Of a DNA stretch of 64,000 nucleotides, positions 2,164 to 2,814 are shown one piece after another. How positions within the stretch are numbered: the first letter of the stretch is position 1; the number at the start of each line of letters is the position of its first letter. The notes below the pieces were generated by a model, which saw only the letters and a list, made by a program, of their open reading frames with translations, was not told the DNA's origin and did no database searches. This DNA comes from a phage, in NCBI GenBank assembly GCA_024683775.1, contig GCA_024683775.1_4106.1. One strand, 5' to 3'. The position numbers and the translations under genes are program-made.

Positions 2164-2814
2164 ATGAATAAAAGAAGTAAGTTCTATCAAGAATATTTCA
2201 CTAAACATAAACGATTCACAAAAAAATACTTTACATCATCCCACCGACCAGTTGCAAGTTACAAACGTCCTAATACTAACTATCTTGCTGGTGGCAAGTT
2301 TAGTGCAAAGTTCGAATTACTTATGCGTGAAAAGAATATCAAGATGCATTACGCAGAGACGAGAAAAAACTCATCAATTATTTGCTCTGATTTTCTTGAG
2401 TACGGTTGCTTAACTTATAAATTCAATGATGTATATTTGTATATTGATGTTGATTGTAACAGTACTCTTATGTTTGAGATTTCAATTCACCCAAATCACA
2501 ACCGTTATATAAACATTAACTTGATTGATAAAGTACTGATTGGTATATCTAGTACTGATGGTGGTGGATTTGAATTTATTGCTTCAAAATATGATGAAGA
2601 TTTCGTACTTTACCCAGTACTTGATGATGTGAAAGATATTCTCAATTCATTAAAAGGAAGTCAATACAAATTACCTGAAGAACAGCTATTTCAGTACTCA
2701 CTTATTCATGATGATATCGAGATATACTTAGAGTGTGCGAGAATCTTGGAGTATCTTTATAATGAACTAACAACAACTGGTAAAGTGACTGCATTCACAT
2801 TATATAATATGTAA
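2164..2814 (+). CDS. hypothetical protein with basic N-terminus and C-terminal EEQLFQYSLIHDD motif (EE-FQ family outlier)
   Basis: 216-aa ORF on opposite strand inside the array; SD GAGG upstream; shares the acidic-aromatic motif with the 55.6-64 kb family. Confidence 0.6.
   Translation: MNKRSKFYQEYFTKHKRFTKKYFTSSHRPVASYKRPNTNYLAGGKFSAKFELLMREKNIKMHYAETRKNSSIICSDFLEYGCLTYKFNDVYLYIDVDCNSTLMFEISIHPNHNRYININLIDKVLIGISSTDGGGFEFIASKYDEDFVLYPVLDDVKDILNSLKGSQYKLPEEQLFQYSLIHDDIEIYLECARILEYLYNELTTTGKVTAFTLYNM

Follow-up and report, generated by a model that had tools for sequence, protein, structure and literature searches.

Gene A, at positions 2164-2814 on the (+) strand of the DNA analysed here, is an unremarkable hypothetical gene, and the phage group to which it belongs is known. 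In the reading that we favour and consider likely, it is an accessory gene that the Asteriusvirus jumbo phages pass on vertically, that diverges fast and that has kept a fixed position; its relation to the large EE-FQ family of the phage would be that of an old and remote paralog. Together with a second gene at 25575 (gene B) it would represent a long subtype of these proteins, and its apparent embedding in an array of RCC1-repeat genes would come from a single RCC1 gene (962-2086) on its upstream side. The appearance of a gene within an array would then be a product of turnover in the RCC1 array and not of any movement by the gene itself. This result opens no long-standing question; the gain is one of annotation, two orphan PHROGs (34359 and 29152) gaining a tentative place in a large and uncharacterised family of paralogs. 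In jumbo phages of the Asteriusvirus and RaK2 types the EE-FQ family takes up tens of kilobases, and it also occurs in an enterobacterial prophage.

Genomic context

The window, by which we mean the whole stretch of 64,000 nucleotides, originates, to judge from its sequence, from an Asteriusvirus-type E. coli jumbo phage. A megablast search with positions 1-6000 matched solely jumbo phages of Escherichia and Salmonella, all of the Asteriusvirus type (PBECO4/121Q group), and the best match was phage Turkey3 (98.7% identity over 100% of the query), in whose record gene A is labelled 'hypothetical protein' and is flanked by genes annotated as RCC1/HERC1-like. The features referred to below are the following, the limits of the large gene blocks being taken from the ORF list of the window, and those of the EE-FQ cluster from its ORFs and a position-specific scoring matrix (PSSM):

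190-925, (+): block of small membrane-protein genes
931-957: bidirectional terminator-like hairpin, after the (+) small-membrane-protein block
962-23470, (-): array of RCC1-repeat genes (2848-23470 beyond gene A)
962-2086, (-): RCC1-repeat paralog of 374 aa upstream of gene A, absent from this place in PBECO4, phAPEC6 and JNE01
2087-2163: divergent intergenic region of 77 bp between RCC1 gene 962-2086 (-) and gene A, holding both ribosome-binding sites
2164-2814, (+): gene A, hypothetical protein of 216 aa (phrog_34359; intact ORF, PHROG match E 2.4e-55)
2665-2715, (+): EE-FQ motif of gene A, YKLPEEQLFQYSLIHDD, residues 168-184 (PSSM 24.9 bits)
2819-2844: perfect hairpin with a 12-bp stem, AATGCCAGTACT-CA-AGTACTGGCATT, between the convergent stops of gene A and RCC1 gene 2848-3981
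23.5-28.4 kb, (+): array of ~60-aa genes, including the 219-aa gene B at 25575
25575-26234, (+): gene B, hypothetical protein of 219 aa (phrog_29152) with motif KELSEEEEFMYSTVIDN (ORF, PSSM 29.4 bits)
28.4 to ~51 kb: short-ORF region
51.8-63.5 kb: arrays of ~75-aa 'LGTNYQE' genes and of EE-FQ genes
55584-63465, (+): tandem EE-FQ gene cluster from its start, with 13 motif-bearing genes
55584-55922, 55937-56278, 56772-57122, 57132-57443, (+): EE-FQ cluster genes 1-4
58590-59150, 59140-59451, 59448-59798, 59770-60339, (+): EE-FQ cluster genes 5-8
60646-61143, 61147-61791, 61788-62396, 62486-63124, 63121-63465, (+): EE-FQ cluster genes 9-13

Asteriusvirus genomes carry direct terminal repeats of ~21 kb, those of fEgEco12 measuring 20,993 bp in a genome of 374,733 bp (PMC13070987). 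Since gene B (at 350834 in fEgEco12 coordinates) and the EE-FQ cluster (at 27266) map in such a way, the segment at ~28.3-49.3 kb of the window is probably a single assembled copy of this ~21-kb repeat. Relative to the repeat so mapped, genes A and B are found just to the left, and the EE-FQ cluster ~6 kb to the right. The mapped left edge coincides with a switch in GC skew at ~28 kb and with the point where the array of 60-aa genes stops (last ORF 28166-28372). This array consists of ~20 tiny tandem genes (59-81 aa; 23575-28372, (+)) of two sub-types, with C-terminal endings ..Y(R/I)EVLKLI(S/A)(I/M) and ..LLLIYR(Y/H), respectively; the boundary between the sub-types is the site where gene B interrupts the array. 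The LGTN(Y/F)QE motif marks a further tandem family of ~20 (+) genes (70-85 aa; 51801-55594, 56282-56497 and 57430-57880), three members of which are interleaved among the EE-FQ genes.

Gene A encodes a conserved hypothetical protein

The description of gene A given in an earlier note on this DNA stands in its main points. The ORF at 2164-2814 (+) is intact, encodes 216 aa and is preceded by a GAGGT ribosome-binding site 5 nt before its ATG; it is indeed the sole (+) gene in the RCC1 array, i.e. the only non-nested (+) ORF of at least 90 aa between 962 and 23470, and the N-terminus is basic as described (net charge +14 and pI 10.4 over residues 1-70). Beyond residue 70 the protein is acidic, and the pI of the whole is 7.0. 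Orthologs were recovered by tblastn in 35 phage records at 29-100% identity, with an ORF intact at 215-220 aa. Because such an ORF has been kept over this whole range of identity, sequence conservation identifies gene A as a real, conserved hypothetical gene. A search at the protein level returned only seven 90%-identity clusters. Gene A, which is on the strand opposite to the RCC1 array, has no RCC1 repeats according to Pfam and NCBIfam (no match), and sequence searches of Pfam, NCBIfam and the PDB with A, B and the family yielded no supported match.

The EE-FQ motif and the tandem cluster

The motif consensus of the EE-FQ family is [LM]SEEExFQxSL[IV]xD. The earlier note had counted at least 16 motif-bearing genes between 55.6 and 64 kb; this number is too high, as we find 13 ORFs with the motif, plus one degenerate candidate at 60326 (NYNFEEFNNYNLVQKY). 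Unrelated small genes are interleaved within the cluster. As matches to the cluster profile run from ~12.0 to 30.8 kb in the PBECO4 locus, the cluster probably continues past the end of the window; such matches number 28 in the PBECO4 locus (L004) and 20 in the JNE01 locus (L005). The pI lies between 4.2 and 5.7 in 11 of the 13 cluster proteins.

Members of the cluster have little in common beyond the motif (18% mean column identity), yet their genes cross-match each other's PHROGs (13866, 33987, 12674, 15629, 22855 and others). A 17-column PSSM built from the 13 cluster genes alone was used to scan the 285 window ORFs of at least 45 aa. It scored gene B at 29.4 bits and gene A at 24.9 bits, while the next of the ~270 other window ORFs reached 2.8 bits and the best among 5,700 shuffled ORFs 12.4 bits. 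The presence of the EE-FQ motif in A and B is far beyond chance. The recurrence of the motif in the 219-aa protein at 25575, as claimed in the earlier note, is thereby confirmed (KELSEEEEFMYSTVIDN, 29.4 bits); the fuller motif stretch of gene A is LPEEQLFQYSLIHDD. The distance from the motif F to the C-terminus is 41 residues in A, 44 in B and 40-51 in the short cluster members.

Genes A and B as a long subtype

Gene B lies among the ~60-aa genes, past that end of the RCC1 array which is farther from gene A. The two proteins are of similar length (219 and 216 aa), the motif F is residue 176 in both, and their first 70 residues are almost equally basic (net charge +15 in B and +14 in A). They also resemble each other in the helix that precedes the motif (DILNSLKGS in B, LQFLKELEH in A) and in a weak N-terminal match (S.KF..LL.K.NIK..Y against SKNLK.YLKKN.IA..F), and both are single-copy genes found in one place per record, near opposite ends of the RCC1 array. 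On the other hand, they are only ~25% identical over the C-terminal 57 columns, and FM replaces FQ in the B proteins of most phages. The N-termini give a weak colinear match in hhalign (P 9e-4); when an HMM of the N-terminal part of A was searched, its top four non-self matches were all B orthologs, yet their scores were at the level of the decoys. In Smith-Waterman comparisons of A with B, some ortholog pairs reach z values of up to 6.6 (N-terminal halves) and 10 (C-terminal halves), and others give non-significant values. Taken together, these sequence comparisons make it likely, if unproven, that A and B form a common long subtype of EE-FQ proteins, in which a basic extension of ~70 residues would be fused at the N-terminus to an EE-FQ-like C-terminal domain.

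How far the similarity to the family extends

Pairwise comparisons were rejected as evidence. With phmmer, A matches cluster protein 57132 (named, like the others, after the start of its gene) at 13 bits and B at 2.8 bits, and BLASTP aligns A with B over 33 residues at E 0.59; scores of at most 13 bits or an E of 0.59 are too weak alone, and profiles with decoys were therefore used in a leave-out design. Ordinary jackhmmer searches over the ORFs of the window and of loci from PBECO4 and JNE01 recruited A and B at E values down to 1e-21, but this is circular, as the sequences enter the model, and these searches were therefore replaced by leave-out runs. In the latter, A, its orthologs and B were removed, the HMM was iterated on the cluster, and ~4,100 reversed or shuffled decoys were scored alongside.

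A-type proteins obtained 14-22 bits in these searches and stood above all decoys with six of the eight seeds, the best of the ~4,100 decoys reaching 8-14 bits. The match to A itself was 18.4 bits (decoy maximum 12.2) and covered residues 134-197, i.e. ~64 residues. The A orthologs of PBECO4 and JNE01 fell within the decoy range in several searches; B orthologs were above the decoys with two seeds, and the window's own B with none. The reverse test gave a similar result: an HMM of the C-terminal half of A found 57132 at 18.5 bits (decoy 11.4), and one of the C-terminal half of B had A-type proteins as its top matches (13.7-17.2 bits; decoy 9.8). Alignments of orthologs were compared with hhalign as follows:

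A vs cluster: 16 columns, P 1.2e-5, probability 81%
B vs cluster: 19 columns, P 2.2e-7, probability 93.5%
A vs B: 57 columns, P 5.9e-5, probability 65%

In the PHROGs database, A falls into its own phrog_34359 (E 2.4e-55) with a weak match to phrog_34516 (E 0.056, residues 168-200), and B matches phrog_29152 only; neither is assigned to any of the mutually cross-matching EE-FQ PHROGs. The similarity between A and the family therefore appears statistically real within this proteome, as far as sequence profiles can tell, and centred on the motif helix and the residues next to it; beyond the motif it is weak but reproducible.

A rather unlikely alternative sees in the EE-FQ element a short functional motif, for instance a helix docking to a common host or phage partner, which has arisen in unrelated proteins by convergence or by the exchange of small segments; A and B would then not truly belong to the family. 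The confinement of the hhalign matches between A or B and the cluster to 16-19 columns points in this direction, as do the separation of A and B from the cluster in PHROGs, the lack of a link between A and the small members in Foldseek (see below), and the differences of A and B from cluster members in size, charge and N-terminal architecture. The HMM alignment, however, spans ~64 residues, and in both kinds of protein the motif lies at a similar distance from the C-terminus (41-44 residues in A and B, 40-51 in the cluster) and is followed by a long helix. Moreover, the cluster members, which share little but the motif among themselves (18%), are nevertheless joined by PHROG cross-matches and by Foldseek; weak similarity in the flanking parts is thus what would be expected of a true remote member.

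We accordingly retain a remote relationship of A to the EE-FQ cluster as probable. The membership of A in the family, as proposed in the earlier note, holds in the sense of a remote link (14-22 bits with leave-out HMMs), but this link is largely centred on the motif (16 columns in hhalign, no Foldseek connection). That note had also considered that the match might be restricted to about 10 residues; the hhalign alignments of 16-19 columns come close to this without fully amounting to it, and the HMM match covers residues 134-197.

Predicted structures

The AlphaFold2 model of A, built from 8 sequences, has a mean pLDDT of 61, with values of 80-90 over residues 120-200 and below 50 over residues 1-82. 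It comprises strands between residues 81 and 151, a helix at 154-162, the motif helix at 172-181 (EEQLFQYSLI) and a long helix at 185-205, the last two with a pLDDT of 85-90. The model of 57132 (103 aa; 42 sequences, pLDDT 76) has strands at 2-48, the motif helix at 56-66, a long helix at 73-89 and a terminal strand, so that the order of secondary-structure elements agrees between the two models. When the model of A was compared with BFVD using Foldseek, the only match was to an ortholog fragment of A itself (A0A2Z5HHK4, the C-terminal 125 aa of the protein in a close relative, 98% identical). The search with the 57132 model retrieved small members of RaK2, slurp01 and PBECO4 at TM 0.6-0.77, and A0A2Z5HHK4 was not among its BFVD matches. 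From the models it is plausible that A shares the fold of the small members, an antiparallel sheet packed by two helices.

The EE-FQ paralogs of Asteriusvirus and Alcyoneusvirus (RaK2) belong to PHROGs 13866, 33987, 34516, 19795, 30978, 28680, 12674 and others, and have no Pfam family. In the favoured reading its members are short and for the most part acidic, and have a beta-sheet and then two helices, the first of which carries the motif. Gene A is like these paralogs in having the motif helix ~40-50 residues from the C-terminus, with strands before it and a long helix after it, and in being encoded on the same strand as the blocks of non-structural small genes. A typical member is acidic and of 100-115 aa (165-214 aa in the long ones), whereas A has 216 aa, a basic N-terminal extension of 70 residues and an extra helix at 154-162, and is a singleton with its own PHROG (34359), ~53 kb from the cluster in the window.

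Position of genes A and B across phages

The scattering of family members as singletons had been taken in the earlier note as a sign of mobility or recombination of these genes. The comparison of phage genomes does not support this. The tblastn matches to A came from 35 phage records and those to B from 36, with exactly one place in each record, and the neighbourhoods were alike in the four loci checked for each gene (Turkey3, PBECO4, JNE01 and phAPEC6 for A; PBECO4, JNE01, A4 and SD-15 for B). Nor are there flanking repeats: the regions 2087-2163 and 2815-2847 share no direct or inverted repeat, having only a generic terminator hairpin, and neither direct repeats, target-site duplications nor recombinase genes were found around A. 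Since A and B keep one place per record, the scattered singletons are probably old, fixed paralogs, and the RCC1 array is the variable element.

The description of gene A as embedded in the RCC1 array is valid for this lineage and does not extend to PBECO4, phAPEC6 and JNE01, which have no RCC1 gene upstream of it. In these three phages the (+) block of small genes ends with the A ortholog, which converges directly on the RCC1 array. Positions 1-956 of the window are colinear with PBECO4 up to the hairpin at 931-957, which in PBECO4 is at once followed by AAGGAG and the start of A; in the present lineage, ~1.2 kb with RCC1 gene 962-2086 lie between this hairpin and A. The apparent embedding would then be caused by a divergent RCC1 gene that lies, with its own upstream region (~958-2150), between the terminator of the (+) block and A. 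With an identity of only 25-27% to any of the RCC1 paralogs sampled, this RCC1 gene is not a recent local duplicate. The ten records with an A at least 88% identical are the same ten that match the window from 1 to ~4000 at 96-99%, which is consistent with a single clade carrying the extra RCC1 gene.

One could also imagine that A, or the 1.9-kb segment 958-2847 comprising RCC1 gene 962-2086 and A, arrived by recombination or as a mobile cassette, which we regard as very unlikely. A similar CCAGTACT..AGTACTGG hairpin does flank the pair on both sides (934-954 and 2823-2840), and an imported segment could account for the low identity of A to its PBECO4/121Q orthologs (~46%, as against ~73% for B and ~78% for the DNA of the cluster). 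However, this hairpin is a generic terminator with further copies between other RCC1 genes, both in the window (12667 and 22309) and in JNE01, the direct repeats, target-site duplications or recombinase genes of a cassette are missing, and A occupies the same place in every genome inspected. As to its divergence, the whole RCC1 region is hypervariable between lineages, so that A is not locally exceptional. Vertical inheritance at a fixed position is therefore the reading that we keep.

Intergenic regions and the recurrent hairpin

In the divergent region 2087-2163, the ribosome-binding site of gene A is GAGGT at 2155-2159 and that of the RCC1 gene a minus-strand AGGAG. The left edge of the region falls within a sigma-70-like match (2065-2094, (+)); in the sigma-70 promoter scan, promoter-like sites were not enriched over shuffled sequences. 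On the other side of gene A, the hairpin at 2819-2844 is followed by a T-run on the minus strand and thus resembles a terminator for the RCC1 array; it may insulate A from minus-strand transcription of that array.

The CCAGTACT-loop-AGTACTGG hairpin has four copies in the window (934-954, 2823-2840, 12667-12684 and 22309-22326), with 0 expected by chance, and was also found between RCC1 genes of JNE01. Further copies are present at 6120-6137 and 7375-7392 of locus L003 and at 25358-25383 of locus L004. The sites are intergenic and are mostly located within the RCC1 array or at its borders. Such a recurrent hairpin could serve as a recombination hotspot for the turnover of the array.

Possible roles

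Large phages carry multigene accessory families in their terminal or early regions. The EE-FQ family is similar to these in consisting of tandem, small, fast-diverging paralogs near a genome end, and differs in that an early or host-takeover role is deduced from position and absence from virions alone. In phAPEC6, the RCC1 proteins gp003-gp010, gp549 and gp551 were detected in virions (Table 1, PMC7247149), and the A ortholog gp011c is absent from the same virion proteome table (PMC7247149). As gp011c is not listed while the RCC1 proteins are, A is probably a non-virion accessory protein made in the infected cell. The table has no entries between gp347 and gp549 (PMC7247149), and the record coordinates suggest that the EE-FQ cluster genes and B are numbered within this gap. 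A, B and the family would be non-virion accessory proteins, plausibly early or host-takeover factors. None of the records, whether listed or inspected, gives a functional annotation for A or the family.

At the molecular level, the acidic, amphipathic motif helix and the helix next to it may constitute the common structural or partner-binding core of the family, to which the basic N-termini of A and B might add the binding of nucleic acids or other polyanions. Taken further, A and B could be a pair with putative nucleic-acid-binding N-termini that brackets the RCC1 array to the left of the terminal repeat and acts in concert, either as regulators or insulators of the late RCC1 array or as adaptors tethered to DNA or RNA; they would recruit a common partner through the acidic helix shared with the ~30-member small family. 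We regard this as a long shot. If true, the EE-FQ helix would be the defining interaction module of a host-takeover system specific to jumbo phages.

Distribution of the EE-FQ family

A profile of the small members, searched against 1.84 billion representatives, retrieved only 31 proteins at E <=1e-3, and no annotated relative was found among these. LSEEExFQxSLVWD was kept in all 25 of the distant matches inspected. Ten matches were traced, namely to Asteriusvirus, to RaK2/K64-1, to metagenome contigs and to one Citrobacter/Salmonella prophage lineage. The prophage member (147 aa, ..LIEMGEDERFQLLLVYDNKY.., gene 8001-8444 in loci L010-L013) occurs in Citrobacter braakii, Salmonella enterica and E. 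coli, in an accessory region that has a serine recombinase on one side and a GpA-type terminase on the other; these neighbours, and the small genes around them, offer no hint of function.

DUF2283 (PF10049) was considered for the family of cluster gene 55937 and rejected, as only 2 of 42 members matched it, at E ~0.11 and short of the Pfam gathering threshold, and A and B gave no match. A UniRef entry named 'DUF2283 domain-containing' (P0054), from a 1,057-bp contig of an Actinomadura adrarensis assembly, is near-identical to residues 27-113 of 55937 and looks like a contamination of this actinomycete assembly by coliphage DNA.

The RCC1 array

The array at 962-23470 (-) comprises ~20 highly divergent RCC1-repeat paralogs with a common N-terminus, MLPF(A/V)R(M/L)(V/F)(K/D)YGN. 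Between phage lineages only the first ~100 nt of the RCC1 genes are well conserved, and the content of the array varies even among close relatives, Turkey3 having an extra gene compared with the window. The ORFs 11444-12790 and 12693-13769 (-) overlap by ~100 nt, and the hairpin at 12667-12684 lies inside the upstream extension of the former, which has a GTG start at 12790; because of this overlap and of the hairpin within the extension, the start of ORF 11444-12790 is probably over-extended.
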